Origin: an uncultured Bacilli bacterium
Lineage (GTDB): Bacteria > Bacillota_I > Bacilli_A > RF39 > UBA660
Assembly (NCBI GenBank): GCA_934086145.1
Contig: CAKOHV010000001.1
Location: forward strand, 53,731 to 117,730
Direction of reading: 5' to 3'
Length of the DNA stretch: 64,000 nt
Below are positions 2,849-58,561 of this stretch, piece after piece. Made by a program: the position numbers and the translations under genes. The notes beneath the pieces are model-generated. The model saw only the letters and a list, made by a program, of their open reading frames with translations. It did not search any database and was not told the origin of the DNA. The first letter of the stretch is position 1; each line of letters begins with the position of its first letter.

Positions 2849-2864
2849 AAAGCATTCTTTTTAC

Positions 2865-2893
2865 TTGCCATTTTTTCAAGAAAAATATATAAT
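2865..2893 (+). promoter_or_regulatory. Sigma-A-like promoter (-35 TTGCCA, 17-nt spacer, -10 TATAAT) with a ~120-nt leader before the 3018 gene
   Basis: Hexamers and spacing read directly from the sequence. Confidence 0.4.
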
Positions 2894-3017
2894 AAAAACA
2901 ATCGTCATATTGTAAATAGATGATAGCGAGTGGTCAAAGCACTTGCACAAAAAAGATTCAAGAGAGTTTGGAGGTCAAAGTGAAAAATTACTTCTTGAAA
3001 AGAGGAGATAATTTACC

Positions 3018-15400: not shown

Positions 15401-16184
15401 TGACTTTTTAAGTAGTTGGAATGATACCCTTGCTTCTTTGCCAAATGAGCAATTAACGGCGACACTTATTACTAATGATAATCTACATGTCTTTGTTCCT
15501 GAAGATATTAATTTTGGTTTTACAAAGTTAAATAATAATACTCTTGAAAATATTATCCTTCCTAATCGTTTTGGTCATTCTTTCTTTGCTTTGCCTCGTA
15601 CCTTAATCAATAATAGTTCCCAAAATCATAATCTTTTCTTCTTAAATAAGTATGAGAATAATAATCAAACCGCCAAAAATCCATATCTAACCCCTGATTA
15701 TCTTCTTTTATTTAAAGATTTAATCTTTATCGATGATGAAACTATTAAAACGGCTTACTTAGAATATGTCTATCGTACAAGTCAGTCTTTTAAAACTAAA
15801 AAAACACCAAATGGGTTACCAATTATTCTCCTCGATCGCCATAAAATAATTACTGACGAAGTAGGGGAATTAAAAGCATCTATCCTTGAATATAACGAAA
15901 ACCATAATGTTATTCTCTTAAAGAAAATTATTGAAAAATATAGTAATAATCAACTTGGTTTAGCATATTTTACTAATGAATTTCTTAATAAATTCGCTAT
16001 TCAAGAACTACTTACAACTATCGAAGAACGCTTAAAAAATTGTCATAACTTATCTGAACTAAATTTATTAAAAGAACTATTTACTGCCGAATTAACTAAG
16101 TATAACTATCTCAAAGACCCTGAAATACCTAATAAAATCCCTTATAATAAATATCTAAAAATAATCGAAAGTAAGTTAAGTTAA
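12408..16184 (+). CDS. Large (1258 aa) Leu/Asn/Lys-rich hypothetical cytoplasmic protein, no recognisable domain
   Basis: Uninterrupted 3.8-kb ORF with RBS AGGAG. No TM segments or catalytic motifs seen. Confidence 0.6.
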   Translation: MKNNKEEFINYLITDDAKSKELLLNLLAEKDYQSIKSIIMSLDRMIKKQELNKNIKENFLFLIAQNIDETDLFDEKMSLKKEYNFLNGMEIVLLQKLLRHNYHFNSEQLTNTKDALLLEIIKYPDSLNCEEAFNILTTRIQDKSFTIDHFAESDMLNYLKLASKLANQTGVEELINDETFISLYNSNNITLPTILLASNHVSKPRLKIITADKSKTYIKQNPSMIANLLTSEEVAILWQDTDLKNLFINHQLRYDCLDAKSQKNLLENIEVFSLYSLKTIKEFIKGYENKEVLIHHLDFLFTYFTALNKEPLAYDTIDSFINLFDEETLFIITDDPRFPYLQESIILYLINSLKPYYLENFFTNAKVHEVLLNNKNVTIYTKLPVNIQKEILASLDKLLLNNVNRQLFLNSNDDLIKKIFKQNDNLYNEILDICLNEKKALTYQELNRLIKLMPSEFYEKLTNEDIYKLSGPTIIAILGDSKNTFRKVILDNEILCSRIVNSINSTNITMIQACLLKITDREKVSLLTKAQNITNPYGAISIIKTMTDEIKKELYQNRALKNLILFSSSTDYLIDNLTISYLLENKELISKLSNNALIEFLTSLNLKELNNLLKEESILSKILSSEVAYSNIITLLNHDNLLLSSLINNRTAKYLEATTLIKLLEQLSINDKKLICTNEDVLLKLFDNNQAVLKTFKNLYEKNNYLLDSLDLKFLNSQTIKLKFAHLEYLTKHNDLQQLLLDIYQKYPLDNKFLTTLFNNDAIGFNHSPLSNILKTIVESIDGINRKKYGNFLKIFANTSFANLSVLEMNKIITYYLSVIPWLQTKEEIKRPAVVSVPRTLEEVLNYEENYAKNIEEKIRLKDYDSYQAIVCLKYYKMTLEEATTFINQYDVTKITEKAYQNEINFLQNLNHFLHQSEKEIRKNKRLKEYKITDIFKINNRLHELFNKLYNYELNINLNNYQPLNVALYGKEITLYEPKEKFTYLLSSVNPKRMLNFADFLSSWNDTLASLPNEQLTATLITNDNLHVFVPEDINFGFTKLNNNTLENIILPNRFGHSFFALPRTLINNSSQNHNLFFLNKYENNNQTAKNPYLTPDYLLLFKDLIFIDDETIKTAYLEYVYRTSQSFKTKKTPNGLPIILLDRHKIITDEVGELKASILEYNENHNVILLKKIIEKYSNNQLGLAYFTNEFLNKFAIQELLTTIEERLKNCHNLSELNLLKELFTAELTKYNYLKDPEIPNKIPYNKYLKIIESKLS

Positions 16185-16996: not shown

Positions 16997-17878
16997 ATGA
17001 ATGTTATAGGTACTTTAGAAAAAGAATTGAAAGATCATATTTGGACACCTGATGAAATAGCTCGTTATCTTTATATAAGAAGTGGTGAATTATTTTCTTA
17101 TGATCCACGCTATTTCTATGCCGATGATGATTTAGAAACGGAAATTTTTGAACGGAAAATTGATTTAGAAAACGTTACTGATTTCCGTGTTGTTTGCGCT
17201 AGTTGGTCTAGTCAAGTTTATGTTCCGTTATTAACTGAATTGGCTAAAATACCTGCTAAGGTCCTTAGATACGGTAGTCATTGCTTAGTTGAGACCCCAA
17301 AAATAATAGGCGATGCTTGTATAAAAAATGACTTAGCTCGTATCAAAATGCGCCTTAATACCGAAGGTTATACCAATCTTAGCTATGAACAGATTGATTT
17401 AGTCGACACTGATCGCCGTATCCAATATATCGAAAACTACTACGCAACCTACAAAATTAATGCCATCGCTCAAACACTCCGAAGTGAATTTATGCGTATA
17501 AATAACATCGTTGATAGTCAATGCATTAACCCAAGTACTCTTTTTGCTTACAAAATTGCCAAATTAAAAAAATTACTTGCTACCTTTCCACTTGTAACAA
17601 GATATAATGATATTACTTTTATGATTAATTACCTTGTTCGTAAACTCTTTACCATCGATGAACGTACGCGCGTTAGGGAATCTGAATTGTACGACAAAAG
17701 GTACGAAGATTGGAATTTTGCTAAAATATTTTACTTCACCTTACCAAATGGTTGTGTCATCCACTATATCTTATCTAAGAAAAATGGTCTTTATACCTTT
17801 GAACAAGCTGACTATCAAGATATTCATAATCTCTTAAATGCTTATTCTCGTGGTGGCAATGAAATAGCATTGCATTAA
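16997..17878 (+). CDS. Hypothetical protein, paralog A of a tandem pair
   Basis: 293 aa, about three-quarters identical by eye to the 18076 ORF. RBS AAGGGGGAA. No domain recognised. Confidence 0.6.
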   Translation: MNVIGTLEKELKDHIWTPDEIARYLYIRSGELFSYDPRYFYADDDLETEIFERKIDLENVTDFRVVCASWSSQVYVPLLTELAKIPAKVLRYGSHCLVETPKIIGDACIKNDLARIKMRLNTEGYTNLSYEQIDLVDTDRRIQYIENYYATYKINAIAQTLRSEFMRINNIVDSQCINPSTLFAYKIAKLKKLLATFPLVTRYNDITFMINYLVRKLFTIDERTRVRESELYDKRYEDWNFAKIFYFTLPNGCVIHYILSKKNGLYTFEQADYQDIHNLLNAYSRGGNEIALH

Positions 17879-18075: not shown

Positions 18076-18966
18076 ATGAATGTTATAGCTACTTTAGAAA
18101 AAGAATTAAAAGATTGTATTTGGACACCTGATGAAATAGCTCGTTATCTTTATATAAGAAGTGGGGAATTATTTTCCTATGATCCACGCTATTTCTATGC
18201 CGATGATGATTTAAAAAGGGAAATTTTAAATCGTAAAATCGACTTAGAAAATGTTACTGATTTCCGTGTTGTTTGCACTAGTTGGGCTAGTCAAGTTTAT
18301 GTTCCATTAGTAATTGAGCTAGCTAAATTACCAGCTAAGGTTGTTAGCTTTAGCGGTCATAGTTATGCTGAGATTCCGAATATATCTGCTGATGCTTGTA
18401 GGCTAAATGACTTGGCTCGTATCAAAATGCGTCTTAATACTGAAGGTTATATCAAACCTGGTGATCATTCATTTGACCAGACTACCTTAGTCGACATTGA
18501 TCGCCGTATTCAATATATCGAAAACTACTATGCAACATACAAAATTAATGCCATCGCTCAAACACTCCGAAGTGAATTTATGCGCATCAATAATATCGTT
18601 GATAGCCATCGCCTTGACCAAAGTAAACTTTATGCTTACAAAATTGCCAAGTTAAAAACATTACTTGCCACTTTTCCGCTTGTAACAAGCTATGATGATA
18701 TTGATTTTGCCATTAATTACCTTGGTCGTAAACTATTTACCCTCGATGAACGTACAAGCATTACAACCTGCGAATTATACGACGAAAGATACGAAGATTG
18801 GAACTTTGCTAAAATATATTGCTTCAACTTATCAAATCGTTATGTCATTTATTATATCTTATCTAAGAAAAATGGTTTTTATACCTTTGAACAAGCTGAT
18901 TATCAAGGTATACATAATCTCTTAGATGCTTATCCCCGTGGTGGCGATGAAATAGCTTTGCATTAA
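18076..18966 (+). CDS. Hypothetical protein, paralog B of a tandem pair
   Basis: 296 aa, high identity to the 16997 ORF (about three-quarters by eye), with a duplicated promoter and RBS. Confidence 0.6.
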   Translation: MNVIATLEKELKDCIWTPDEIARYLYIRSGELFSYDPRYFYADDDLKREILNRKIDLENVTDFRVVCTSWASQVYVPLVIELAKLPAKVVSFSGHSYAEIPNISADACRLNDLARIKMRLNTEGYIKPGDHSFDQTTLVDIDRRIQYIENYYATYKINAIAQTLRSEFMRINNIVDSHRLDQSKLYAYKIAKLKTLLATFPLVTSYDDIDFAINYLGRKLFTLDERTSITTCELYDERYEDWNFAKIYCFNLSNRYVIYYILSKKNGFYTFEQADYQGIHNLLDAYPRGGDEIALH

Positions 18967-19954: not shown

Positions 19955-19989
19955 TGTTATAATTTTCGATAGGATAGGAGAGTTTTATA
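19955..19989 (+). promoter_or_regulatory. Extended -10 promoter (TGtTATAAT) plus conserved leader tcgataggataggagagtttta, upstream of giant pilin-like gene 1
   Basis: The same architecture recurs upstream of all three giant genes (19955, 24837, 29442). Confidence 0.55.
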
Positions 19990-22900
19990 GTGAATAAAAA
20001 AGGTTTTACATTAGTAGAACTACTAGCTGTCATAGCCATTTTAGGTATCTTATCGGTCGTAGCTATCGGCGCTTATAGTGGTGTAACTAATCGTTCAAAA
20101 CAAAAAGCCTATGAATCCAAAGTTTCCCAAATTGAAACTTCGGCTGCCAAATGGGCTCGTGAAAATAATATTGACCGTACAACATCAGTTTCTGTTAATA
20201 AACTAGTCGTTGAAGGCTACTTAACAGCCGATGAAGCTACGGAAAATGGTTTATCAACTATCAAAAATCCTGTTAATAACGAAAATATGATTTGTAAGAT
20301 GGTTGAAATAACTTATAAGAATGGTGAAATCCAAACAAAATTTGATGCAACTAAAAACAATTGTAGCTTAGCTGAACAAGCCTTAAATGATACCCAAATA
20401 AAAGTTGTGGCCTATCAAAAAGGTGTGGCTGGGGCATCTGCGGCAATAAGTCCTAACTCAAACAATGCTTTAGCATGGACTAACAAAGCCTTAACTTTGG
20501 TTGTTTCAAGTGATACTTACAAAGATGAAGCCCAAAATTCTAAGGAATCAAATCCAGTTGTTGCCGTATCTTTTGACTTTAATGGTAGTACAACGGAAAA
20601 GACCATCGTCATCGATAATGCTAATCCATCAAATAAAAAATCTAATGTTTATACTGGTACTACTTATCTTGATGATACAACGACTTATTACAATACTTTC
20701 AATGTTGATGCCGCTGTTATCCTTGATAGTAATGTTGTTGTTTCATATCGTTTCAAAGATGGATCAACTAAATCTCGTACCATCAATGTTCGTATCGATA
20801 AAGAAGAAGCAACAGCTTCCGTTATTGCTACATCAGATTGGGTTACAGCCACCCAAAAAGTTATCGTTAAACTAGATGATGGTAATGGTAGTGGTGCTCG
20901 TCGCTTCTACGTTGGTGTTGGCAATGCTTATAACGATCCTGGAGTTCAAAAAGTTGACTTATGTGGTGCCAATGGTAAAAATTGTAAATATGAAAAAGAA
21001 TACAATGCTCCAAGTGTTGGGGAATACAACATTTGGACTGAAGATATGGTTGGTAATATTTCCGTCCAACCTAAAAATAAAATATCAGTCAATAACGTCG
21101 ATACTTCTACACCATCATGTAACTTCGATAATATCGGAACTATGGGTCAAAATAATTGGTATGTAACCGATGTTACACCACGTATGCGTACAAGCGTCGC
21201 TGGTAATAGTGGATTATACTTTGGTATTTCTAAAACCCAAAATGGTAAAGATAATCCTAACTATTCTAATTACGTAGGTTATGGTAGTGTAGGTATCAGT
21301 CAAGCGGCCAAACTAAGTGATACTAAGGGTCAAGATTACACTTGTTACGTTAAATCACTGGCTGGTACCAAGGCCCAAAAGAAAACTAATATCAAAGTCG
21401 ATACAACCCCACCAACTATTACCGTATCACCAACTAATCAATCTAGTAGTTACGTTAAAGAAAAAACTATTACGATTAAAGCCCGTGACACGATCAGTGG
21501 TTTAGGTAAAAATAGTCGTATAGAATACGCTTGGAGTACTGATAGCAATAACGAACCATCTACTTGGCAGACAGTTGCACTTCCAGGAACTGACTATACT
21601 GGCGAAAATGGTCCAACTGATGAAAAAACAGTGACCATAACCGCCAAAGGAATGACCGGTGTTTACTACCTTTGGATCAAAGAAGGAACTATTTCTGATG
21701 CCGCCGGAAACACTAGTCAAGGCCTACAAGGCAAATCAGCCCGCTACGGACCATATAAATTTGATAACACGCCCCCTTCTTGTGAGCTTCAAGCTGATGG
21801 TACTGTCGGTGATAACTCTTGGTATACAAGCAATGTCACTATAAGCTTTAAAACGCATAGTGATAATGATAGTGGCGTTAAAAACTATGGTATAAGTAGT
21901 ACAACCGGTTCTAAAACCGCTTCCTTAACTAGTGATACAAGTTCTAAAACTTATACTGGTTACATTGAAGATAACGCCGGTAATAAGAGCTCTTGTAGTA
22001 TTACAGTCAAAAGAGATGCCACTAAACCAAGTTGTTCTTTACAAGCCGTTGGAACAAAAGGCGAAAATGATTGGTATACAAGTGATATCACTGTTAAATT
22101 TAAAACTTCAACAGACGCTATGAGTGGTCTTGCTAAAAAAGGTATTGATAATATAGCTAATGCTGAAACACTTCATGTTACTAATGACAATACCGGTACA
22201 AAATATACTGGTTATGTTAAAGATAATGCTGGTAATATTGGAACCTGTGCAGCTTCTTATAAAATCGACCAAACGCCACCTAGTTGTAGTTTAAAAACAT
22301 CTGGTACTAATGGTGATAATGGTTGGTTTAAAAGTAATGTTACTGTTGAAGTAGCAACTCACACGGATGCTACAAGTGGTGTTGATGGCTATGGCTTAAG
22401 CACTAGTGGGGCAAACTATACTACTACTAAACTAGTTCAAAAAGATGATACATCCGGTGTAAAATATACTGGTTATATCAAAGATAAAGCCGGTAATAAG
22501 GCTACTTGTGGTCCGGTAACAGTTAAAAAAGATACTAAAGCTCCATCATGTAAATTACAAGCTAGTGGAACGCTTGGTAACAATGGCTGGTATAAAAGCA
22601 ATATTGTTATTTCTTTTAAATCTCCAACAGATGCGACTAGTGGAATTGCTGCCAAAGGTATAGGTGGCTTTGATAAAGCTGATACCCTAACTGTTGACTA
22701 TAGTACAAGTGGAACAACTTACTATGGCTTTATTAAAGACAATGCTGGTAATCAAGCAATATGTAATGCAGTATACAAAGTTGATAAAACTGTTCCAACT
22801 TGTTCAATTACAGCTAGTGGATCTTATGGCTGGAATAGTTGGTACAATTCAGATGTTGAAATTTCATTGAAGAGTAGTGGAACAGATTGGCCAAGTGGTA

Positions 22901-23853
22901 TTAAAAGTTATGGAATAGGTAGTACAACAGGTGCTACAAGCGCTAAATTGACTACTGATACTAAATCTAAAACATATACAGGATATATTGAGGATGAAGC
23001 TGGTAATATAGGATCATGTGCCGTTACCGTTAAAAGAGATACTACACCACCTTCTTGTACATTAAGCAAGACTTGTACAAACTCGGGCGAAAATGGTTGG
23101 TGTAAATCAAATGTTGGTATTAAATTTAGTTCTACCTATGATGCTATGAGTGGGGTAGATGGTTATGGTATAGGTGGCTATTATAACTATCCAAGAGAAA
23201 AAACACTAGATTACGACTCTGGAGCCAATGGTGTAACATATATTGGATATATTGCCGATAAAGCTGGTAATACAAGTTCATGTTATACAACAGCTTATCG
23301 TGATACAATTCCTCCAGCATCATCAATATGTTCATCTGGCTTTAGAGTAAGTGGAACATCTGGTAATTCCGGCTGGTACCGTTCCAGCGTAACATTAACT
23401 TCTACTAGTAGTGATGTTAATTATTTCAAGGTAAATGGAGCAAGTACAAAGTATTATTCTACTTATACAATGTCTAGTGATGGTAGCCATTCCGCTGCTA
23501 TAACAATTTATGATGATGCTGGAAATAGTACTACTTGTCCGACAAAATATTTTTCAATCGATAAAACATACCCAACCCTTTGGGTTTCCAATGCTGATAA
23601 TGGTTGTCCTGCCGGCGTAAATAAAACTTACCGAACCGGTAATGTTTACGATGCCACAAGTGGATTATCAAAAGCTGATTCTTCTTACCTTATAGGTGCG
23701 GATCTTGAACATGCCGCTTACAAATCGCCAGTAACTCCAAATGGAGCCCATTCTGGAAAAGAAGGCTTTTGCTCAGGAATTGGATCGTTGTATGCATCAT
23801 GGACTCTTTGTGATATTGCAGGTAATTGTACTTATGATTCAGGTTCATGGTAG
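19990..23853 (+). CDS. Giant (1287 aa) prepilin-type protein: type IV pilin N-terminal domain + ~6 tandem ~90-aa Cys-pair Ig-like modules + conserved Cys-rich C-terminal domain
   Basis: GTG start. N-terminus MNKKGFTLVELLAVIAILGIL is the prepilin peptidase cleavage/methylation motif (G|FTLVE). Repeats begin [TK]xPSC[ES]L[QK]A.GT.G.NGWY; C-terminal EGFCSG...CDIAGNC. Paralogous to the 24870 and 29475 genes. Confidence 0.8.
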   Translation: MNKKGFTLVELLAVIAILGILSVVAIGAYSGVTNRSKQKAYESKVSQIETSAAKWARENNIDRTTSVSVNKLVVEGYLTADEATENGLSTIKNPVNNENMICKMVEITYKNGEIQTKFDATKNNCSLAEQALNDTQIKVVAYQKGVAGASAAISPNSNNALAWTNKALTLVVSSDTYKDEAQNSKESNPVVAVSFDFNGSTTEKTIVIDNANPSNKKSNVYTGTTYLDDTTTYYNTFNVDAAVILDSNVVVSYRFKDGSTKSRTINVRIDKEEATASVIATSDWVTATQKVIVKLDDGNGSGARRFYVGVGNAYNDPGVQKVDLCGANGKNCKYEKEYNAPSVGEYNIWTEDMVGNISVQPKNKISVNNVDTSTPSCNFDNIGTMGQNNWYVTDVTPRMRTSVAGNSGLYFGISKTQNGKDNPNYSNYVGYGSVGISQAAKLSDTKGQDYTCYVKSLAGTKAQKKTNIKVDTTPPTITVSPTNQSSSYVKEKTITIKARDTISGLGKNSRIEYAWSTDSNNEPSTWQTVALPGTDYTGENGPTDEKTVTITAKGMTGVYYLWIKEGTISDAAGNTSQGLQGKSARYGPYKFDNTPPSCELQADGTVGDNSWYTSNVTISFKTHSDNDSGVKNYGISSTTGSKTASLTSDTSSKTYTGYIEDNAGNKSSCSITVKRDATKPSCSLQAVGTKGENDWYTSDITVKFKTSTDAMSGLAKKGIDNIANAETLHVTNDNTGTKYTGYVKDNAGNIGTCAASYKIDQTPPSCSLKTSGTNGDNGWFKSNVTVEVATHTDATSGVDGYGLSTSGANYTTTKLVQKDDTSGVKYTGYIKDKAGNKATCGPVTVKKDTKAPSCKLQASGTLGNNGWYKSNIVISFKSPTDATSGIAAKGIGGFDKADTLTVDYSTSGTTYYGFIKDNAGNQAICNAVYKVDKTVPTCSITASGSYGWNSWYNSDVEISLKSSGTDWPSGIKSYGIGSTTGATSAKLTTDTKSKTYTGYIEDEAGNIGSCAVTVKRDTTPPSCTLSKTCTNSGENGWCKSNVGIKFSSTYDAMSGVDGYGIGGYYNYPREKTLDYDSGANGVTYIGYIADKAGNTSSCYTTAYRDTIPPASSICSSGFRVSGTSGNSGWYRSSVTLTSTSSDVNYFKVNGASTKYYSTYTMSSDGSHSAAITIYDDAGNSTTCPTKYFSIDKTYPTLWVSNADNGCPAGVNKTYRTGNVYDATSGLSKADSSYLIGADLEHAAYKSPVTPNGAHSGKEGFCSGIGSLYASWTLCDIAGNCTYDSGSW
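21770..23310 (+). repeat. Array of ~90-aa Ig-like coding repeats inside giant pilin-like gene 1 (approximate bounds)
   Basis: Recurring PSC-x-L...NGWY...D..SG...YTGY..D.AGN..C modules. Bounds estimated by eye. Confidence 0.45.
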
Positions 23854-23868
23854 AATAGAGGAGATAAA

Positions 23869-24669
23869 ATGAAAAAAGATAAGAAAAAAATAATTATAAT
23901 AAGCTTAATTGCTGTTGCAGTTATTGCTTTAATTGTTATCATCGTTGTAGCTTGCTTACCTAAAAAAAATAAAACAGAAGACAAAAAGCAGGACGAAGCT
24001 CCAATTTACACACCAGAAATTGCTGCTGCTCAATTAAAGGACTATGAAATAGGCAACTTTAAATTTCATGATATAAAAGTTCTTCCTGCTTGTGCTAAAG
24101 AAGAAGAGTGCTTTTTAGCTAATAGCTACTTTAGACAAATCAGTTATAAAGAAGATAATGCCGTAATTAATGAAGCTTTAACAACTATCAATAATAAAAC
24201 TAATGAATATTATGATCGTATAAATGCTCCAGAAAATACAAAATCATGTGACAAATATGTTAGAAATCTATACTATAAACCATCTGTTGAAACTTTTGAA
24301 AATGACCAATACATTAGTATTGCTGTTTCTAATAATCTTGGAGCACTATGTGATGCCAAATCTCTTTATGAAGATGGTGAATATTACATCTATAGTAAAG
24401 AAAGTCAAACAATGCTAACTAAAGAAGAAATATTAACTTCTTTCAATCTAACAGAAGCTGATATTCTTAGCAAAATTAATAAATACTATAAAAAAGATAC
24501 TTTAGCTGATTTAGATTACAATATCTTTATTAGTGTAACTGGGGAATTAAAAATAACATTCCTTGGCGATGATGGTCGTTATTATATTACTCTTCAAGAA
24601 TTGTATAAAGAAAGTCAAGATGATCAAAAAAATCAAAGTAGTGGTCTTACCGATATTGATTTTGAATAG
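23869..24669 (+). CDS. Hypothetical N-terminally membrane-anchored protein co-transcribed with giant pilin-like gene 1
   Basis: Starts 15 nt after the pilin stop with RBS AGAGGAG. TM segment IIIISLIAVAVIALIVIIVVA. Cys-containing extracytoplasmic domain. Confidence 0.55.
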   Translation: MKKDKKKIIIISLIAVAVIALIVIIVVACLPKKNKTEDKKQDEAPIYTPEIAAAQLKDYEIGNFKFHDIKVLPACAKEEECFLANSYFRQISYKEDNAVINEALTTINNKTNEYYDRINAPENTKSCDKYVRNLYYKPSVETFENDQYISIAVSNNLGALCDAKSLYEDGEYYIYSKESQTMLTKEEILTSFNLTEADILSKINKYYKKDTLADLDYNIFISVTGELKITFLGDDGRYYITLQELYKESQDDQKNQSSGLTDIDFE

Positions 24670-24679
24670 TGAACTTCTT

Positions 24680-24710
24680 AAGCTTACACCTAAAAGTGTA
24701 GGCTTTTTTT
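24680..24710 (+). terminator. Rho-independent terminator
   Basis: Stem aagcttacac/gtgtaggctt (9 of 10 paired) with a 6-nt loop, then a T7 run. Confidence 0.65.
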
Positions 24711-24836
24711 AATACTTTTACACTTTAAAATTTTAATTTTTTTCTTAACTAAGCCCTTTAAAATCGAGGACTTTTAAAAGAAGAAAATTAAAATTCAACA
24801 AAAATGAAAAAGATATCACAAATTTATAAAAATGTA

Positions 24837-24869
24837 TGGTATAATTCTCGATAGAATAGAGGCGTTTAT
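24837..24869 (+). promoter_or_regulatory. Extended -10 promoter (TGgTATAAT) + conserved leader, upstream of giant gene 2
   Basis: tatggtataattctcgatagaatagaggcgtttatATG; homologous to the elements at 19955 and 29442. Confidence 0.55.
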
Positions 24870-27800
24870 ATGCATAATAAAAAAGGTTTTACATTAGTTG
24901 AATTATTAGCTGTTGTAGCCATTCTTGGTATATTATCCATTGTTGCTATCGGTGCTTATAGTGGCATAACCAATAGATCAAAACAAAAAGCCTATGAATC
25001 TAAAGTTTCGCAAATCGAAACATCAGCTGCTAAATGGGCTCGTGAAAACAATATTGATCGTACAACTTCCATTTCTGTTAACAAACTGGTTGTTGAAGGT
25101 TACTTAACGGCTGATGAAGCAACTGAAAATGGTTTATCAACTATCAAAAATCCTGTTAATAACGAAAATATGATTTGTAAGATGGTTGAAATAACTTATA
25201 AAAATGGTGAGATTCAAACCAAATTTATTGATAATAAAAATAATTGTACGCTTGCTGAGCAAGCTCTAAATGATACGAAGATAAAAGTTGTTGCGTACCA
25301 AAAAGGGGTTACGGGAGCATCTGCTGCTTTAAGTCCTAATTCAAACAATGCCTTAGCATGGACAAACAAAGCCTTAACTTTAGTTGTTTCTAGTGATAAT
25401 TATAAAGATGAAGCCCAAAATAGTCGTGAAACCAATCCTATTGTTTCAGTATCCTTCGATTTTAATGGTAATACAACTGAAAAAAATGTTGTCATTGATA
25501 GTACTAATCCTTCTAAAAAGAAGTCTAATGTTTATACAGGTAACACCTATATTGATAATATTGATGCTTATTACAATGTTTTCAACGTTGATGCAACTGT
25601 CATTCTTGATAGTAACGTAGTTGTTTCATACCGCTTTAAAGATGGTTCAACTAAATCACGTACTATCAACGTTCGTATTGATAAAGAAGAAGCAACCGCT
25701 TCCGTTATTGCTACATCAGATTGGGTTACAGCCACCCAAAAAGTAATCGTTAAACTAGACGATGGTAATGGTAGTGGTGCGCGTCGCTTCTATGTTGGCG
25801 TTGGTAATTCTTACAATGCACCAGGCGTTAATAAAGTTGAATTATGTGATGCCAACGGCAAAAATTGTAAATATGAAAAAGAATACAATGCTCCAAGTGT
25901 TGGAGAATACAACATTTGGACTGAAGATATGGTTGGTAATATTTCCGTCCAACCTAAAAATAAAATCTCAGTCAATAACGTCGATACTTCTACACCATCA
26001 TGTAACTTCGATAATATCGGAACTATGGGTCAAGGCAACTGGTATATAACTGATGTTATCCCACGTATGCGTACAAGCGTCGCTGGTAATAGTGGTTTAT
26101 ACTTTGGTATTTCTAAAATTCAAAATGGTAAAGATAATCCTAATTATTCTAATTACGTTGGGTATGGTAGTATAGGTATCAGCCAAGCTGCTAAATTAAG
26201 TGATACTAAGGGTCAAGATTATATTTGTTATGTAAAATCATTAGCGGGTACAAAAACCCAGAAGAAAACTAATATTAAAGTTGATACAATTCCACCAACT
26301 ATTACCATATCACCAACTAATCAATCTAGTAGTTATGTTAAAGAAAAAACTATTACAATTAAAGCTCGTGATACTATTAGTGGTTTAGGTAAAAATAGTC
26401 GTGTAGAATATGCTTGGAGTACCGACAGCAATAACGAACCATCTACTTGGCAAACGGTTGCTCTTCCAGGAACTGACTATACTGGGGAAAATGGTCCAAC
26501 TGATGAAAAATCAGTAACCATAACCGCTAAAGGTATGACTGGTGTTTACTACCTTTGGATTAAAAAAGGAACAATTTCTGATGCTGCTGGTAATGCTAGT
26601 GAAGGCTCTCAAGGCAAATCAGTAAGATATGGTCCTTTCAAATTTGATAACACACCACCTTCTTGTGAATTGCAAGCTGCTGGTACTATCGGTGATAACG
26701 CTTGGTATACAAGCAATGTCACTATAAGCTTTAAAACGCATAGTGATAATGATAGTGGCGTTAAAAACTATGGTTTAAGTAGTATAACGGGTTCTAAAAC
26801 CGCTTCCTTAACTAGTGATATAAGTTCTAAAACTTATACTGGTTACATTGAAGATAACGCCGGTAATAAGAGTTCTTGTAGTATTACAGTTAAAAGAGAT
26901 GCTACTAAACCAACTTGTTCTTTAGAAGCTAAAGGAACCAAAGGCACAAATAATTGGTTTACTAGTGATATCACGGTCAAATTTAAAACATCAACTGATG
27001 CTATGAGCGGCCTCGTAAGAAAAGGAATAAATAGTATCAATAATGCTGATACACTACGGGTTACAACTGACAACACTGGTACAAAATATATTGGTTATGT
27101 TAAAGATAATGCGGGAAATGTCGGAACCTGTGAAGCAACTTACAAGATTGATAAAACAGCTCCTACATGTGCCCTTAAAGTTACAGGAAATCTTGGTGAT
27201 AATGGTTGGTATAAGAGTAATACTACGATTACAGTTGATACTCATACTGATGCCACAAGTGGTGTCGATGGTTATGGTTTAAGTACCAATGGTTCAATTA
27301 ATTATACCAATACTTACCTCACTCAGACTCTTGATACCAAAGGTGTAATATACACTGGTTATATTAAAGATAAAGCTGGTAATACGGCAACTTGTGGCCC
27401 AGTAACTATTAAAAAGGATAGTAAAGCTCCATCATGTCAATTACAGGCTTCTGGTACTAAAGGCGAAGACAATTGGTATGTAACTAACGTTAACGTTAGT
27501 TTCAAAGCTCCATCAGACGCCACAAGTGGTATTGCCAAAAAAGGTATTGGTGGTTTTGATAATGCTGATACTCTTACCATAAATTATGATACAACTGGTA
27601 CAACATATTATGGTTTTATTAAAGATAATGCTGGTAACTCAGCGATTTGTAATGCTACTTATAAAGTCGATAGAACTAAACCAACATGTTCATTAAAAAC
27701 AAGTGGTACAGCTGGTGAAAATGGTTGGTACCGAGGCGATGTTGCTGTCGAATTCGCTAGTTATAATGATTGGGCTAGTGGTATAAGTGGTCATGGTTTA

Positions 27801-29237
27801 AGTACTAACGGCACTGCAAATTATACTAATACCAAACTTACCCAAACTAGCGATACCACTGGAACAACATACACTGGCTATGTCAAAGATAATGCTGGTA
27901 ATAAGAACTCTTGTAGTGTTACAGTAAAAAGAGACACTCAAGCTCCATCGTGTGAATTACAAGCCAGTGGAACCGAAGGAGAGAATGGTTGGTATAAAAG
28001 TGGTATTACTGTTTCCTTTAAATCCGCCACTGATACCACAAGCGGAATTGCTCTAAAAGGTCTAGGTGGGTATTATGGTTCAGCTACAGAAACACAAAAT
28101 GATAATACAGCTGGCAAGAATTATACCGGCTATGTCAAAGACAACGCTGGTAATACGGCAACGTGTACAGCAACTTATAAAATTGATAAAACCGTTCCAA
28201 CTTGTTCAATAACAGCTAGTGGAACTTATGGTTGGAATAGTTGGTATATTACAGATGTTGCTATTTCATTAAAGAGTAGTGGAACAGATTGGCCAAGCGG
28301 CGTTAAAAGCTATGGTATAGGAAGTTTAGGTGGCGAAAAATCAGCTACTTTAAATTACGATACTTCTTCTAAAAAATATACTGGCTATATTGAAGATGAA
28401 GCTGGTAATACGAATTTTTGTTCTATTGAAGTTAAAAGAGATGCTACTAAACCTTCTTGTACGTTAAGCAAGTCATGTTCAACCTGGGGAGAAAATGGTT
28501 GGTGTAAATCTAATGTTGGTATTAAATTTAGTTCAACTTATGATGCTATGAGTGGGGTAGATGGTTATGGTATAGGTGGCTATTATAACTATCCAAGAGA
28601 AGCAACACTAGATTACGACTCTGGAGCCAATGGTATATCGTACTTTGGATATATTGTTGATAAAGCTGGTAATACAAGTTCATGTAGTACAACAGCATAT
28701 CGTGATACAACTCCACCAGCTGCTTCATTGTGTTCTACTGCTGTTAGCAAAAGTGGAACCCTTGGTAATGAAGGATGGTACAGGTCAGATGTTACTGTAT
28801 CTACAACAAATAGTGATATAAGTTACTTTAGATTAGATGGTCAAGCTAAAACAACGCTTACAACAGATGGCTACCACACAGTCACTTTATATGATGCTGC
28901 TGGTAACAGTAGAGAGTGTGATAAAATTAAAATCGATAAAACTAATCCGACTATAGACATATTGAGTTACGTACCAGCATGTCCAAGTGATGCTAAAGTA
29001 AATTATCGTATGGGGCATGTTACTGATGCTACAAGCGGTATATCTAAAAACTCATACTATTGGGTTGGTACGAGCAAAGATGACAAAAAATATTATCCAG
29101 GAGCAACTCCTCACGAATCAAATGAAGGCGTAGAAGGTTTTTGCTCGGGGAAAAACACTTTATATACTGCATATCATACATGTGATGTAGCAGGTAATTG
29201 TATTAATGGATCTTGGTCATGGGATACAACGCCATAG
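24870..29237 (+). CDS. Giant (1455 aa) prepilin-type protein, paralog 2 (~8 Ig-like modules)
   Basis: MHNKKGFTLVELLAVVAILGIL prepilin signal. The first ~600 aa are highly similar to gene 1. More repeat modules. Same C-terminal Cys-rich domain (EGFCSG...CDVAGNC). Confidence 0.8.
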   Translation: MHNKKGFTLVELLAVVAILGILSIVAIGAYSGITNRSKQKAYESKVSQIETSAAKWARENNIDRTTSISVNKLVVEGYLTADEATENGLSTIKNPVNNENMICKMVEITYKNGEIQTKFIDNKNNCTLAEQALNDTKIKVVAYQKGVTGASAALSPNSNNALAWTNKALTLVVSSDNYKDEAQNSRETNPIVSVSFDFNGNTTEKNVVIDSTNPSKKKSNVYTGNTYIDNIDAYYNVFNVDATVILDSNVVVSYRFKDGSTKSRTINVRIDKEEATASVIATSDWVTATQKVIVKLDDGNGSGARRFYVGVGNSYNAPGVNKVELCDANGKNCKYEKEYNAPSVGEYNIWTEDMVGNISVQPKNKISVNNVDTSTPSCNFDNIGTMGQGNWYITDVIPRMRTSVAGNSGLYFGISKIQNGKDNPNYSNYVGYGSIGISQAAKLSDTKGQDYICYVKSLAGTKTQKKTNIKVDTIPPTITISPTNQSSSYVKEKTITIKARDTISGLGKNSRVEYAWSTDSNNEPSTWQTVALPGTDYTGENGPTDEKSVTITAKGMTGVYYLWIKKGTISDAAGNASEGSQGKSVRYGPFKFDNTPPSCELQAAGTIGDNAWYTSNVTISFKTHSDNDSGVKNYGLSSITGSKTASLTSDISSKTYTGYIEDNAGNKSSCSITVKRDATKPTCSLEAKGTKGTNNWFTSDITVKFKTSTDAMSGLVRKGINSINNADTLRVTTDNTGTKYIGYVKDNAGNVGTCEATYKIDKTAPTCALKVTGNLGDNGWYKSNTTITVDTHTDATSGVDGYGLSTNGSINYTNTYLTQTLDTKGVIYTGYIKDKAGNTATCGPVTIKKDSKAPSCQLQASGTKGEDNWYVTNVNVSFKAPSDATSGIAKKGIGGFDNADTLTINYDTTGTTYYGFIKDNAGNSAICNATYKVDRTKPTCSLKTSGTAGENGWYRGDVAVEFASYNDWASGISGHGLSTNGTANYTNTKLTQTSDTTGTTYTGYVKDNAGNKNSCSVTVKRDTQAPSCELQASGTEGENGWYKSGITVSFKSATDTTSGIALKGLGGYYGSATETQNDNTAGKNYTGYVKDNAGNTATCTATYKIDKTVPTCSITASGTYGWNSWYITDVAISLKSSGTDWPSGVKSYGIGSLGGEKSATLNYDTSSKKYTGYIEDEAGNTNFCSIEVKRDATKPSCTLSKSCSTWGENGWCKSNVGIKFSSTYDAMSGVDGYGIGGYYNYPREATLDYDSGANGISYFGYIVDKAGNTSSCSTTAYRDTTPPAASLCSTAVSKSGTLGNEGWYRSDVTVSTTNSDISYFRLDGQAKTTLTTDGYHTVTLYDAAGNSRECDKIKIDKTNPTIDILSYVPACPSDAKVNYRMGHVTDATSGISKNSYYWVGTSKDDKKYYPGATPHESNEGVEGFCSGKNTLYTAYHTCDVAGNCINGSWSWDTTP
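26650..28720 (+). repeat. Ig-like coding repeat array inside giant gene 2 (approximate bounds)
   Basis: Eight modules starting PSCELQAAG, PTCSLEAKG, PTCALKVTG, PSCQLQASG, PTCSLKTSG, PSCELQASG, PTCSITASG, PSCTLSKSC. Confidence 0.45.
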
Positions 29238-29298
29238 ATAAAAAATATAAAAGAATGTTTTATGTTAAACACTAAAACATAATTACTATAAATAAAAA

Positions 29299-29329
29299 AG
29301 TTAACGTTCAAGAAACGTTGGCTTTTTTT
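29299..29329 (+). terminator. Rho-independent terminator after giant gene 2
   Basis: Hairpin around aacgtt/aacgtt arms (agttaacgtt-caagaa-aacgttggct), then a T7 run. Confidence 0.5.
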
Positions 29330-29441
29330 AAATCTAAATATTTTTGATATACGTTTAATAATTGCTAAAGCAAATATGAAAAAAACTTATTTAAAAAAAT
29401 AATTTTTATTATAAAAGTTAATTTAAATCATCAAAATTGTA

Positions 29442-29474
29442 TGATATAATCATTAGTAGGATAGAGGAGTTTGT
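29442..29474 (+). promoter_or_regulatory. Extended -10 promoter (TGaTATAAT) + conserved leader, upstream of giant gene 3
   Basis: tatgatataatcattagtaggatagaggagtttgtATG. Confidence 0.55.
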
Positions 29475-32400
29475 ATGAGTAGTAAAAGAAGTCGTAGTAA
29501 AAATAATAAAAAAGGATTTACCTTAGTTGAATTGCTTGCCGTTGTTGCCATCTTAGGAATTGTATCTGTCATTGCCATTGGAGCATATAATGGAATTTCA
29601 AATCGTTCAAAACAAAAAGCTTATGATTCTAAGGTCTCTCAAATTGAAACATCAGCTGCCAAGTGGGCTCGAGAGAATAATATTGATCGAACAACATCCA
29701 TTTCTGTTAATAAATTAGTCGTTGAAGGCTACTTAACTGCTGATGAAGCGACCGAAAATGGTCTTTCCATTATTAAAAATCCTAAGACTAATGAAAATAT
29801 GATTTGTAAAATGATTGAAATAAGTTATAAAAATGGGGAAATTCAGACTAAATTCATCGATAGTAAGGACAATTGTACTTTAGCCGAGCAAGCTTTAAAT
29901 GATACTAAAATAAAAGTAATTGCCTATCAAAAAGGTGTTACTAAAACGGCTGCAGCTTTAAATCCAAACTCTAATAATATTTTACCTTGGACAAACAAAG
30001 CTGTAAGTTTAGTTGTTTCTAGCGATGCTTATAAAGATGAAGCCCAAAATAGTCGTGAAACCAATCCAATTGTTTCTACTTCTTTTGACTTTAGTGGTAA
30101 TAGTAACGAAAAGAAAGTTATTATAGATAATTCAAATCCTTCAAACAAAAAATCCAATGTATATTCTGGCAAAGCTTATGTTGACAATCCCGATGCTTAC
30201 TATAATGTCTTTAACGTTGATGCCAGCATTATTCTTGATAGTAACGTTGTTGTTACATATCGTTTCAAAGATGGTACAACAAAATCAAGAACTATTAATG
30301 TTCGTATTGATAAAGAAGAAGCTACAGCTTCTGTAATTGCTGAATCTGACTGGGTTACAAATACTCAAAAAGTAATTGTTAAAATCGACGATGGTAATGG
30401 TAGTGGAGCTCGTCGCTTCTACGTTGGAGTCGGTAATGCCTATAATGCTCCTGGAGTCGAAAAGGTTGAATTATGTGATAGCAATGGTAAAAACTGTAAA
30501 TATGAAAAAGAATATAGTGCTCCAAGTGTTGGTGAATATAACATTTGGACAGAAGACATGGTTGGCAATATTTCTGTTAATCCTAAAAATAAAATTTCTG
30601 TTAATAACGTTGATACATCTGTGCCATCATGCTACTTCGATAATATCGGAACAATGGGCCAAAATAATTGGTATGTAACAGCCGTAACACCTCGTATGAA
30701 CACTAGTACTGCCGGAATAAGTGGACTATATTATGGTATTTCTAAAGGAACCAATAATCCTAATTACAAAAATTATGTTGGGTATAATGCCGTTGGTACA
30801 AGTACCGCTGCCAAAATTAATAACGATACACAAGGTCAAGATTATACCTGTTATGTTAAATCACTTGCTGGTAATGAAGCTAAAAAGACCTCAACAATTA
30901 AAGTTGATACAACTCCACCAACTATAACAGTTAGCCCAACTAAACAAGAAACTTATGTTAAATCACAAAAAATTACCATCACAGCTAAAGATACAATTAG
31001 TGGTTTAGGTAAAAATAGTAAAATAGAATATGCTTGGAGTACTGATAGCAATAACGAACCATCTACTTGGCAAACGGTTAATCTTCCAGGAACTGACTAT
31101 ACTGGGGAGAATGGCCCAACTGATGAAAAAACAGTAACCATAACCGCCAAAGGAATGACTGGTGAATATTATCTTTGGATAAAAAAAGGTACTATAAGTG
31201 ATGTTGCTGGAAATAGTAGTGTAGGAAAAAATGGTAAGTCAATTAATTATGGTCCATTTAAATTTGATAATACTGCGCCAGAATGTGAACTCAAAGCCGA
31301 AGGAAAAAAAGGAGATAATGATTGGTATACTGGTAATGTTGAAATTAGTTTTAAATCAACTTCAGATGTTGGCAGTGGTGTTAAAAGTTATGGTATTAAT
31401 AGTACAACTGGTTCTGAAACAGCTTCCTTAACTAGTGATACAAGTTCTAAAACTTATACTGGTTACATTGAAGATAAAGCTGGTAATAAGAGTTCTTGTA
31501 GTATTATAGTAAAAAGAGACACTGAATCCCCATCATGTGAATTACAAGCAACCGGAACAAAGGGCGATGATGGTTGGTATAAAAGTGATATTAAAGTTTC
31601 CTTTAAATCAGCCACTGACAAAACAAGTGACGTTGATAAAAAAGGGATAAATGGTATTGATAAAGATGATACTCTTGATGTTTATACAGAAACCGACGAT
31701 AAAGGCGAAACTTATACAGGCCACGTAAAAGACAAAGCCGGTAATACTGGAACTTGTAAGGCAACTTACAAAATAGATAAAACAGCCCCAAGTTGTAGTA
31801 TAAAAATTTCAAGTAAACCAACTGGTAATAAAGATTGGTATGTAAGTGATAGTGTTACTATAGAGTTTGATGGTGACGTTACTGATGCCCGTAGTGGTGT
31901 AAGTGGTTATGGTTTAAGTAGTGATGGAAAAGCTAATTACAAAGATAACAAAATAACTCATACCGCAGATACTACTGGAATAACTTACATTGGCTATGCT
32001 ATAGATAAAGCCGGCAATACGACAACATGCGGTTCGGTTACCTTTAAAAAAGATTCAACAAAACCTTCTTGCTCATTAAAAACAAATTGCTCAGCTATTG
32101 GGACGCAAGTAAGTGATACAACAGACAAATATTGGTGCAAGTCAAGTACCGTAGACGTTGAATTTGCTACGACAAATGACGCTACTAGTGGGATTGTAAA
32201 AAAAGTTATAAGCACTGAAGGTGAAGCTGAAGCTAAAGATAGTATTTTTAGCAATATTCCTGATACAGGGGCTAACGGTAAAAGTTATACAGGTTTTGTG
32301 GAAGATGAAGCTGGTCATAAAGCCGATTGTAAGTTAACTGTTTATAAAGATTCAGTTGCTCCGGCAGAATCTTTATGCACCAGTACTAAGCTTAAAGAAA

Positions 32401-32978
32401 GTGTTGCCGAAGGTACTGAAGCAGGTAGAAATGACTGGTATCGAGGTAATGTTACAATAACATCAACCGATAGAGATGTCAGTTACTTTACGGTAAATGG
32501 TAAGGGAAGTTATACAAGCAGTTATACTATTGAATCTGAAGGAGAACATGAGATAAACATTACTCTATATGATGCGGCGGGTAATGGTATGAGTTGCTCA
32601 ACCAAATTTATAAAAATCGATAAAACTAATCCAATATTTATCACAACAGGAGACGATCCAGGGTGTCCGACTAAAAAAAAAGAAACTGATCCAGAATATA
32701 AAACATGGCGTAAGGGTATCGTAACAGACGATGTAAGTGGCATAGATCCGAACCCTGAATATACAAATTATAAAATTGGTGCAACAGCAGACACTATGGC
32801 TGATTTTAATCCTGCTACAAAGAAAAAAGGTGCAAAAATCGGGTACGAAGGCTTCTGCTCAGGTGGTACAGAAGTACATATAAAATACAACATCTGTGAT
32901 ATGGCAGGTAATTGCATTAAAGGCAATAATTTTTGGAAACAACCACCACCTCCACCTCCTGAAACCAAAACTTCGTAA
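29475..32978 (+). CDS. Giant (1167 aa) prepilin-type protein, paralog 3 (~4 Ig-like modules, poly-Pro C-terminal tail)
   Basis: MSSKRSRSKNNKKGFTLVELLAVVAILGIV prepilin signal with a longer leader peptide. Diverged C-terminal region ending FWKQPPPPPPETKTS. EGFCSG...CDMAGNC is retained. Confidence 0.8.
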   Translation: MSSKRSRSKNNKKGFTLVELLAVVAILGIVSVIAIGAYNGISNRSKQKAYDSKVSQIETSAAKWARENNIDRTTSISVNKLVVEGYLTADEATENGLSIIKNPKTNENMICKMIEISYKNGEIQTKFIDSKDNCTLAEQALNDTKIKVIAYQKGVTKTAAALNPNSNNILPWTNKAVSLVVSSDAYKDEAQNSRETNPIVSTSFDFSGNSNEKKVIIDNSNPSNKKSNVYSGKAYVDNPDAYYNVFNVDASIILDSNVVVTYRFKDGTTKSRTINVRIDKEEATASVIAESDWVTNTQKVIVKIDDGNGSGARRFYVGVGNAYNAPGVEKVELCDSNGKNCKYEKEYSAPSVGEYNIWTEDMVGNISVNPKNKISVNNVDTSVPSCYFDNIGTMGQNNWYVTAVTPRMNTSTAGISGLYYGISKGTNNPNYKNYVGYNAVGTSTAAKINNDTQGQDYTCYVKSLAGNEAKKTSTIKVDTTPPTITVSPTKQETYVKSQKITITAKDTISGLGKNSKIEYAWSTDSNNEPSTWQTVNLPGTDYTGENGPTDEKTVTITAKGMTGEYYLWIKKGTISDVAGNSSVGKNGKSINYGPFKFDNTAPECELKAEGKKGDNDWYTGNVEISFKSTSDVGSGVKSYGINSTTGSETASLTSDTSSKTYTGYIEDKAGNKSSCSIIVKRDTESPSCELQATGTKGDDGWYKSDIKVSFKSATDKTSDVDKKGINGIDKDDTLDVYTETDDKGETYTGHVKDKAGNTGTCKATYKIDKTAPSCSIKISSKPTGNKDWYVSDSVTIEFDGDVTDARSGVSGYGLSSDGKANYKDNKITHTADTTGITYIGYAIDKAGNTTTCGSVTFKKDSTKPSCSLKTNCSAIGTQVSDTTDKYWCKSSTVDVEFATTNDATSGIVKKVISTEGEAEAKDSIFSNIPDTGANGKSYTGFVEDEAGHKADCKLTVYKDSVAPAESLCTSTKLKESVAEGTEAGRNDWYRGNVTITSTDRDVSYFTVNGKGSYTSSYTIESEGEHEINITLYDAAGNGMSCSTKFIKIDKTNPIFITTGDDPGCPTKKKETDPEYKTWRKGIVTDDVSGIDPNPEYTNYKIGATADTMADFNPATKKKGAKIGYEGFCSGGTEVHIKYNICDMAGNCIKGNNFWKQPPPPPPETKTS
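31270..32340 (+). repeat. Ig-like coding repeat array inside giant gene 3 (approximate bounds)
   Basis: Modules starting PECELKAEG, PSCELQATG, PSCSIKISS, PSCSLKTNC. Confidence 0.4.
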
Positions 32979-32996
32979 TAAACAACTTCTTAATTA

Positions 32997-33028
32997 AAAG
33001 CTTTTGCCTTCCCAAGCAAAAGCTTTTT
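32997..33028 (+). terminator. Rho-independent terminator after giant gene 3
   Basis: Perfect 12-bp stem aaaagcttttgc/gcaaaagctttt with an 8-nt loop, then a T-run. Confidence 0.7.
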
Positions 33029-41348: not shown

Positions 41349-41369
41349 AAAGTGCGATGCACTTTTTTT
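41349..41369 (+). terminator. Rho-independent terminator
   Basis: Stem aagtgc/gcactt with loop gat, then a T7 run. Confidence 0.65.
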
Positions 41370-41434
41370 CTTTGGCTAAATATTGTCATGTAATTTCTAA
41401 TATGATACCATGTTATAGAGTAGAGGATGATTTT

Positions 41435-58219: not shown

Positions 58220-58561
58220 ATGGGAAAAGAAGAATTTAAAAACTTTGTTAAAACAAAACCTGAATTAATTGATTATATTGAAGACAATTCTATGACTTGG
58301 CAAAAATTCTATGAAATATATGATATGTATGGCGAAGACGAAAGCGTTTGGCAACGTTATAGTAAAAAAAAGACCCCAGAAAATCCTAAAGTATCTAATT
58401 TTATGGACAAAATTGATATTGATACTATTCGTTCACACATTGACACTGCGCAAAAAGCTTTAGGTGTTATTAGTGAATTAACTACTAAAGGAAATGAATC
58501 TATTTCTAACATCATTAAACCTAAAGCAGAAAGACCAATTACCAAGTTCTTTGGAGATTAA
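58220..58561 (+). CDS. Hypothetical protein (113 aa)
   Basis: ORF immediately after the parC terminator. No domain recognised. Confidence 0.45.
   Translation: MGKEEFKNFVKTKPELIDYIEDNSMTWQKFYEIYDMYGEDESVWQRYSKKKTPENPKVSNFMDKIDIDTIRSHIDTAQKALGVISELTTKGNESISNIIKPKAERPITKFFGD

Follow-up and report, generated by a model that had tools for sequence, protein, structure and literature searches.

The window, a stretch of 64,000 nt with a G+C content of ~30%, carries three genes for giant proteins of 1287, 1455 and 1167 amino acids (aa), the lengths given in the original prediction, where the products were described as type IV prepilins bearing stalks of immunoglobulin (Ig)-like repeats. The genes lie on the forward strand and are referred to as G1, G2 and G3 in window order. 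Within each, a putative pilin module is followed by a proximal region, a run of tandem repeats and a distal tip, with the following boundaries.

19955-19963, +: extended -10 promoter element of G1, TGTTATAAT (direct sequence reading)
19977-19982, +: ribosome binding site (RBS) of G1, GGAGAG
19990-23853, +: G1, 1287 aa, GTG start
19990-20379, +: G1 putative pilin module, residues 1-130; leader MNKKG, mature Phe+1, Glu+5, hydrophobic alpha-1, predicted small beta head, Cys102-Cys125
20380-21774, +: G1 conserved proximal region, residues 131-595; ~4 predicted all-beta domains; motifs RIDKEEATA, DDGNGSG and IWTEDxAGN
21775-23304, +: G1 tandem Ig-like modules, residues 596-1105; six of 84-88 aa, Cys pair ~71 residues apart
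23305-23850, +: G1 distal Cys-rich two-domain tip, residues 1106-1287; EGFCSG...CDIAGNC
24837-24845, +: extended -10 element of G2, TGGTATAAT
24870-29237, +: G2, 1455 aa
24870-25262, +: G2 putative pilin module
25263-26657, +: G2 proximal region
26658-28706, +: G2 repeats, eight modules and one variant
28707-29234, +: G2 tip
29442-29450, +: extended -10 element of G3, TGATATAAT
29475-32978, +: G3, 1167 aa
29475-29891, +: G3 putative pilin module
29892-31277, +: G3 proximal region
31278-32348, +: G3 repeats, four modules
32349-32939, +: G3 tip
32940-32975, +: G3 poly-Pro tail, PPPPPPETKTS

An extended -10 element and RBS belonging to each gene were read from the sequence in the same layout for G1, G2 and G3, and each giant gene appears to have a promoter of its own. 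Position 19955, at which the interval had been said to start, is the first base of the extended -10 element of G1 and is not coding.

Pilin module, stalk and tip

The leader peptides are MNKKG/FTLVELLAV in G1, MHNKKG/FTLVE in G2 and MSSKRSRSKNNKKG/FTLVE in G3 (the slash marks the predicted cleavage site), with Glu at +5 in each. Matches to Pfam N_methyl (PF07963) scored 29.5, 31.2 and 32.8 bits for G1, G2 and G3 respectively, against a gathering score of 21.2, and all three proteins exceeded the cut-off of NCBIfam TIGR02532. The prepilin cleavage signal with Glu+5 that had been proposed for all three is therefore borne out by both curated models. When PDB sequences were searched, alignments were obtained with Geobacter PilA-N (residues 2-58 of the giant pilins) and with Neisseria PilE (residues 6-99). 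A full-length AlphaFold2 (AF2) model of G3, built on the 70-sequence family alignment with a mean predicted local distance difference test (pLDDT) score of 81, places a single 51-residue helix at residues 17-67, followed by a small sheet with strands between residues 74 and 132 that is bracketed by Cys111 and Cys134. Conservation was assessed over the same 70 family members, among which Glu+5 was found in 70/70 and Gly-1, Phe+1 and the head Cys pair were conserved in at least 90%. Each giant is thus predicted to start as a complete small pilin of ~130 aa, running from a class III signal to a disulfide-closed beta head. The features typical of a type IV pilin were found, namely the class III signal, an alpha-1 of ~50 residues (predicted) and a beta head (predicted), and the AF2 helix, the PilE and PilA-N alignments and the conserved Cys pair uphold the earlier description of a hydrophobic alpha-1 and pilin chassis.

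Between paralogues, the ratio of non-synonymous to synonymous substitution rates (dN/dS) was 0.04-0.06 in the pilin module (0.05-0.06 for that of G1), 0.09-0.15 in the proximal region and 0.22-0.36 in the repeats and tip, the constraint being greatest on the pilin module and least on the distal tip. Since dN/dS in the pilin module is low while dS is 0.7-1.6, its conservation is the product of purifying selection and not of recent gene conversion. Variation of a different kind was seen when G2 was compared with its counterpart in the same species (L001 1255-5625), where dS was 0.68 and dN 0.16 over the distal 260 residues and dS was 0.03-0.11 over the rest. The elevated distal dS indicates that the tip of G2 has been replaced between strains by recombination, yielding mosaic alleles.

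The paralogues are 85-98% identical over their first ~600-680 residues and ~40-50% identical distally, in keeping with the shared region of ~600 aa noted originally. The proximal region returned no match to any Pfam family and is all-beta in the G3 model. Beyond it lie tandem modules of 84-92 aa, six in G1 (84-88 aa), eight in G2 and four in G3, each with one Cys at position 3 and another at ~74, and variant modules occur before and after the run in each gene. The four to eight tandem modules with two conserved Cys were accordingly recovered as described, together with the conserved Cys-rich C-terminus (EGFCSG...CD.AGNC) and the poly-Pro tail of G3. The G3 model contains ~10 all-beta domains after the pilin head, and the module counts give ~12-13 domains for G1 and ~14-15 for G2. 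In each giant, 10-15 Ig-like beta-sandwich domains are predicted to follow one another without branching, and a Cys-rich two-domain tip ends the series. The length of such rods is estimated at ~35-65 nm, assuming ~4 nm per Ig-like domain. A conserved Cys pair is found in most of the Ig-like domains, with one Cys close to each terminus of the domain, and the rod is probably stabilised by disulfides.

Foldseek comparisons of the model with the PDB were headed by multi-Ig rods (the GhpA grappling hook, mastigonemes, CEA and DSCAM) which, with the all-beta domains of the AF2 model, support the Ig-like character suggested for the stalk. The tip model resembled SiiE BIg tandems (E = 7e-6), FN3 tandems and the Deinococcus HPI surface layer (S-layer) protein, and its best structural match was an S-layer protein. 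Profile searches of the protein bodies with Pfam and NCBIfam gave only sub-threshold matches of HYR, Big_3_2, Filamin, DUF6006 and OmpL47 type, and assignment of the bodies to a family in either collection was dropped because every match lay below threshold. Of the families that had been proposed for a check with hidden Markov models (N_methyl and Ig-like/Big families), N_methyl lay above its gathering score and Big_3_2 below threshold.

The C-termini of the giants (...CTYDSGSW, ...SWSWDTTP and ...PPPPPPETKTS) possess neither a sorting motif nor a hydrophobic tail, and no SLH, LPXTG/NPXTG, LysM or choline-binding anchor was detected in the three proteins, using translations of the open reading frames (ORFs) and Pfam. 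Sorting signals of NPQTG and NPNTS type, each followed by a hydrophobic stretch and a basic tail, stand at the C-termini of two other ORFs of the window (41357-43249 and 37719-38681), and a gene for a 518-aa sortase lies just upstream of the window (L020 4790-6346). The sortase-type signals on these ORFs and the sortase gene show that a conventional sortase route of wall anchoring is present in the organism, of which the giant pilins make no use.

Family, host and neighbouring genes

A word-indexed search recovered 112 homologues, nearly all of 700-1770 aa with N_methyl, and none was named in any source searched. A profile of the head and proximal region (A1), searched exhaustively against representatives of clusters at 50% identity, matched 1786 representatives at E ≤ 1e-3 and 145 at E ≤ 1e-30. 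A class III signal was present at the N-terminus of 92 of 137 top representatives not previously seen, with lengths of up to 2296 aa; the remainder were Sec-signal giant surface proteins having the Ig-like modules in common. Judged by sequence, the giants belong to a large and wholly unnamed family of pilins of 500-2300 aa from uncultured gut and rumen Bacilli. The statement that they are several times larger than known pilins holds for characterised pilins and fails for those in databases, which reach ~2300 aa. Likewise, the family is undescribed in that no source searched gives it a name, and proteins of its kind have already been published as modular pilins (PMC8179133).

The genomes nearest to the window are UMGS1573 and two further metagenome-assembled genomes (MAGs), all labelled 'uncultured Tenericutes bacterium', and one rumen Bacilli MAG. 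Synteny with the window extends to UMGS1573 (73-79% nucleotide identity), which has one giant pilin and the 266-aa gene described below at the syntenic site and no fewer than five additional giant pilins elsewhere in its contigs. Because genes for SpoIVA, SpoVIF, sortase and penicillin-binding protein (PBP) are present, the organism is a walled Firmicute and not a mollicute, and the 'Tenericutes' label of its closest genomes is misleading in its case. The sporulation-associated genes YlbD_coat, SpoVIF and SpoIVA were noted at 58220-58561 of the window and at L020 1384-1626 and 6527-8011, and PBP/Mur genes are also present. Contigs of the same species were found in several human-gut cohorts, the Hadza among them, and G1 recurs at 99-100% identity in NCBI and ENA assemblies. 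In other strains the array consists of four giant genes, of 1287, 1456, 1309 and 1167 aa.

The original prediction had the three giant genes in tandem; strictly they are not, as a further gene and a terminator stand between G1 and G2.

23869-24669, +: gene for a 266-aa single-pass membrane protein, directly after G1; no family match
24680-24715, +: terminator-like hairpin and T-run at the end of the G1/266-aa unit

The 266-aa gene is apparently co-transcribed with G1. A homologue is located directly 3' of the syntenic giant pilin gene in UMGS1573 (L004) and a weak homologue follows another giant pilin gene (L009 9749-10249). The 266-aa protein could be a partner or chaperone of giant pilins.

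Two pilins of canonical size are encoded 26 kb downstream of the giants.

59341-60078, +: 245-aa type IV pilin, copy 1; N_methyl 37.6 bits
60429-61166, +: 245-aa type IV pilin, copy 2; protein identical to copy 1

These genes are in tandem and ~92% identical as DNA, flanks included, and their product and the giants have nearly identical alpha-1N segments (FTLVELLAVIVILAIL in the 245-aa pilin). Other strains possess 245- plus 241/242-aa versions of the pair, and the corresponding parC-efp interval of one relative (L036) holds three pilins, of 383, 228 and 230 aa. The 245-aa pilin is, on its sequence, the obvious candidate for a major pilin.

Immediately upstream of the pilin array, between a CmpB-like gene and an ArsP_2-like permease gene, lie paralogous ORFs of 293 and 296 aa (16997-17878 and 18076-18966) without Pfam matches; UMGS1573 has a single copy (L004 6775-7674). 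A 1258-aa ORF at 12408-16184 has no family match and is probably cytoplasmic, no signal sequence being evident by eye. It is 75% identical to its counterpart in UMGS1573 and ~30% identical to a 1059-aa ORF beside a giant pilin gene in L010. At L011, in a related MAG, several ORFs resembling TasA/camelysin-type proteins and SipW-like signal peptidases were recognised by eye beside a giant pilin gene (2195-3323, 8564-9127 and 13349-15892) and, on that basis, would be a second, unrelated fibre system. The interval 61404-64000 was at first taken as free of ORFs and is the 5' part of a 1048-aa gene of the amino-oxidase/DAO family, which continues past the end of the window and is complete at L016 12064-15210. 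Neither Rfam nor tRNA scans of the window gave a match. No mobile-element genes were seen in the giant-pilin locus, for which no search aimed at a prophage or mobile origin was made, and synteny with relatives holds for the locus, which lies between the CmpB-like gene and a P-type ATPase gene.

Assembly genes and models of display

At two loci from relatives (L012 and L013), the giant N_methyl pilin gene directly adjoins a cluster of four tad genes, comprising a ParA-like tadZ, a T2SSE ATPase of CpaF/TadA type (tadA) and two single-domain T2SSF genes (tadB and tadC).

L012 12343-16010: tadZ-tadA-tadB-tadC beside a giant N_methyl pilin
L013 5678-9802: tadZ-tadA-tadB-tadC beside a giant N_methyl pilin

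Of the giant-pilin loci, only L012 and L013 were found to have a T2SSE ATPase nearby (ORF reading, Pfam and tblastn). Neither a Flp gene nor one for a prepilin peptidase was seen near the two clusters; L013 has an additional, weak TadE-like ORF. The order tadZABC, CmpB-like gene, P-type ATPase gene was found in three further relatives and is likely to be ancestral, while a fourth has tadZABC downstream of obg. In the lineage of the window, the pilin array lies between the CmpB-like and P-type ATPase genes. As a control, N_methyl pilins were sought within 10 kb of unrelated CpaF loci obtained from JGI metagenomes with a TadA profile and were found at 0/80; these are mostly distant environmental Tad loci and are of use as a negative control only. 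The arrangement in L012 and L013 suggests that a Tad-type motor works with non-Flp pilins in these relatives, and the link between Tad and the giant pilins is to be regarded as a lead and not as a result. A bolder and rather doubtful proposal is that a Tad-type motor and N_methyl pilins form a hybrid machine, or that fibrillar adhesins are anchored to Gram-positive surfaces by a new route. The giants and the 228-383-aa pilins of the parC-efp interval would then be substrates of a pared-down tadZABC motor with no Flp gene nearby, and a type IVc motor acting on type IVa/Com-like pilins could yield pili tipped with Ig rods or wall-spanning rods on stubs. The window species may, on this proposal, have relocated or replaced its Tad-type motor. 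If the association of N_methyl pilins with a Tad motor is genuine, type IVa/Com and type IVc systems would be less sharply divided than at present.

On balance, and with moderate confidence only, the giants are taken to be modular minor type IV pilins within a filament composed mainly of the 245-aa pilin, each displaying a tip-bearing Ig rod. A prepilin peptidase would cleave the giants after Gly-1, whereupon the hydrophobic alpha-1 would leave the membrane and pack into the core of a type IV filament. This filament would most likely be built mainly from the 245-aa pilins, with the giants as subunits of low abundance at its tip or sparsely along its shaft. Each giant would project a rod of ~35-65 nm, of which the variable distal domains may contact a ligand in the gut, and the Cys pairs, if oxidised, could make the rod resistant to force. 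The number of paralogues (three or four per strain) and the mosaic tips may diversify specificity or antigenicity. The giants probably put an adhesive fibril on the cell surface.

Several observations weigh against this reading. Neither the window nor ~26 kb of same-species flanks (~10 kb upstream, containing SpoIVA, sortase and PriA, and ~16 kb downstream, containing PBP, L33 and EF-P) yielded a gene for an A24 prepilin peptidase, T2SSE or T2SSF. At 12 of the 14 loci examined, the giant pilin gene stands as an orphan amid housekeeping genes, and more distant giant pilins (P0086 and P0073) are likewise encoded by orphan genes. Upstream of the CmpB-like gene, the ancestral place of tadZABC is occupied by MYG1 and the 1258-aa gene, and the best 120 CpaF matches did not include a TadA cluster of the prevalence expected for this species. 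Two candidates for its TadA were rejected, a CpaF group at 83-87% which belongs to another species without the pilin array, and singletons at 71-73% which derive from another relative or from bulk metagenome assembly. The evidence leans towards tadZABC being absent at the ancestral site in this species. In Erysipelotrichales, comG has been reported just upstream of efp (PMC12786226); no comG genes were present upstream of efp in this species. Finally, Foldseek gave the tip a generic Ig/FN3 fold only, with no recognisable ligand-binding site.

The orphan position of the giant genes, far from assembly genes, and the lack of long-pilus machinery in the window and flanks examined speak for another reading, in which the pilin module, once cleaved, would serve as an anchor in the membrane or in a short pseudopilus-like stub, from which the Ig rod itself crosses the peptidoglycan to display its tip. 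The estimated rod length matches or exceeds the Gram-positive wall, PBP and Mur genes are present in the organism, and in a survey of fibrillar adhesins that made no use of a pilin or N_methyl model, nearly half of the candidates had no known anchor (Monzon 2021, PMC8286594). Such an anchor is a credible alternative of lower probability, as it leaves unexplained an invariant Glu+5 and an alpha-1N shared almost exactly with the 245-aa pilins, a disulfide-closed pilin head under very strong purifying selection, and the filament motor beside the giant pilin gene in two relatives. In type IV pilins, the invariant Glu+5 and alpha-1N are important for filament assembly and not for simple anchoring. 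Archaeal surface proteins with class III signals, as in the Sulfolobus bindosome, provide an analogue of the anchored arrangement.

It is unlikely that the giants are themselves major subunits, polymerised through alpha-1 into a thick appendage from which Ig rods radiate like the bristles of a bottle-brush. In favour of such a brush are the small size of the pilin module, from whose C-terminus the rods emerge beyond the head in the model, and a rod width of ~2.5 nm that would by our estimate fit the surface area available per subunit; each giant gene also has a strong-looking extended -10 promoter of its own. The duplicated, identical genes for a canonical-size pilin are nevertheless better candidates for the major subunit, and thousands of subunits of 130-160 kDa would be very costly for a gut organism with a small genome; to our knowledge, there is no precedent for a major pilin above ~250 aa. 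Least probable, to the point of being hard to sustain, is that these are ordinary cell-wall or S-layer-type proteins whose prepilin-like N-terminus acts as a Sec signal-anchor. Many giant Firmicutes surface proteins with Sec signals do carry the same Ig-like modules, and the tip finds its best structural match in an S-layer protein. The signal, however, lies above curated thresholds in all three paralogues and recurs at the same position in 92 of 137 further top representatives of the family, its Glu+5 is invariant, a full pilin head follows it, and the proteins are without an SLH, LPXTG/NPXTG, LysM or choline-binding anchor.

Comparison with known systems

Type IV filaments have been studied mostly in cultured pathogens, where a pilin is of ~15-25 kDa and, in the few modular cases, has just one additional domain. 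If the Ig rods stand on pili, they would be candidate factors for colonisation and antigenic variation in a prevalent uncultured lineage of the human gut, as well as a natural scaffold for the display of long cargo on type IV pili.

The giants resemble Tad systems in that a giant pilin gene adjoins tadZ-tadA-tadB-tadC in two relatives; no tad genes were found near the giants in the window. Tad/Flp pilins are ~50-80 aa in length with a G/XXXXEY motif, whereas the giants are proteins of 1167-1455 aa with a GFTLVE N_methyl motif and a predicted beta head, and do not qualify as Flp pilins. The pilins of Tad systems are short Flp proteins without a beta head, and large C-terminal domains are carried by TadG-like pseudopilins (PMC12786226). 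Neither are the giants sortase-type pilins of the LPXTG class, their C-termini being without a sorting signal. A prepilin-type signal also places large, non-filament surface proteins in the bindosome of Sulfolobus, which is archaeal and has solute-binding cargo, and the analogy is a functional one only; the NCBIfam name 'bindosome assembly system ATPase' was encountered among the annotation results.

The giants share with SiiE and with sortase-anchored stalk adhesins (PMC8286594) a long monomeric rod of Ig-like domains, the distal end of which is presumed to be adhesive, and the rod of tandem repeat domains by which a fibrillar adhesin stalk is recognised was found in all three. Their tip is a distinct Cys-rich two-domain unit and the most variable part of the protein, and it matches generic Ig/FN3/BIg folds only. 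They differ in their anchor, which is an N-terminal pilin module in place of a C-terminal LPXTG motif, a retention module of the RTX/type I secretion system (T1SS) kind or a beta-barrel. Polarity is reversed relative to the fibrillar adhesins of Firmicutes, as the giants would be anchored at the N-terminus with the tip at the C-terminus. A pilin anchor was not searched for in the survey of fibrillar adhesins (PMC8286594), and the giants suggest a type of anchor outside its search.

In having a pilin module followed by beta-repeat or beta-sandwich domains, the giants are similar to CofB of enterotoxigenic Escherichia coli (ETEC) and TcpB of Vibrio cholerae. TcpB is a type IVb tip minor pilin, and CofB has been discussed as one (PMC8179133). 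Both have a flexible linker, a position at the pilus tip and a role in binding a ligand or adaptor. Unlike the giants with their 10-15 domains, CofB and TcpB have two extra domains and are encoded by genes of the pilus operon in diderm type IVb systems. No sequence similarity between the giants and either protein was found in the search of PDB sequences, where matches were confined to alpha-1 and the head.

The closest parallel is with modular pilins, defined as an N-terminal pilin module joined to extra non-pilin modules, which are widespread and comprise more than 1,200 proteins in 264 architectures, the largest of 860 residues (Raynaud 2021, PMC8179133). In Streptococcus sanguinis, PilB carries a von Willebrand factor A (vWA) module and PilC a lectin module (PMC8179133; PMC9934059). 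PilB, a bimodular pilin with a bulky vWA module, mediates adhesion, and structural modelling has indicated that it can pack into a filament (PMC8179133). The giants correspond to the definition, with a pilin module of ~130 aa and a predicted 10-15 beta-sandwich domains. Like PilB and PilC, they have a monoderm host, a class III pilin module, a short linker and non-pilin modules, with display of a binding module on a filament proposed in both cases. The genes of PilB and PilC belong to the pil locus, unlike those of the giants, which are orphans. PilB and PilC each have one recognisable functional module, and the giants have 10-15 Ig-like domains with no recognisable ligand-binding domain; processed PilB is of 50.5 kDa compared with ~125-155 kDa for the giants. 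Published modular pilins also differ from the giants in the fibrillar-stalk cargo of the latter, in their strain-variable arrays of orphan paralogues and in their uncultured gut Bacilli host. The giant family, with its hundreds of sequence clusters, represents the modular-pilin idea at the scale of fibrillar adhesins. The design principle of a functional module on a pilin is already published, and the giants are an extreme and unnamed form of it.

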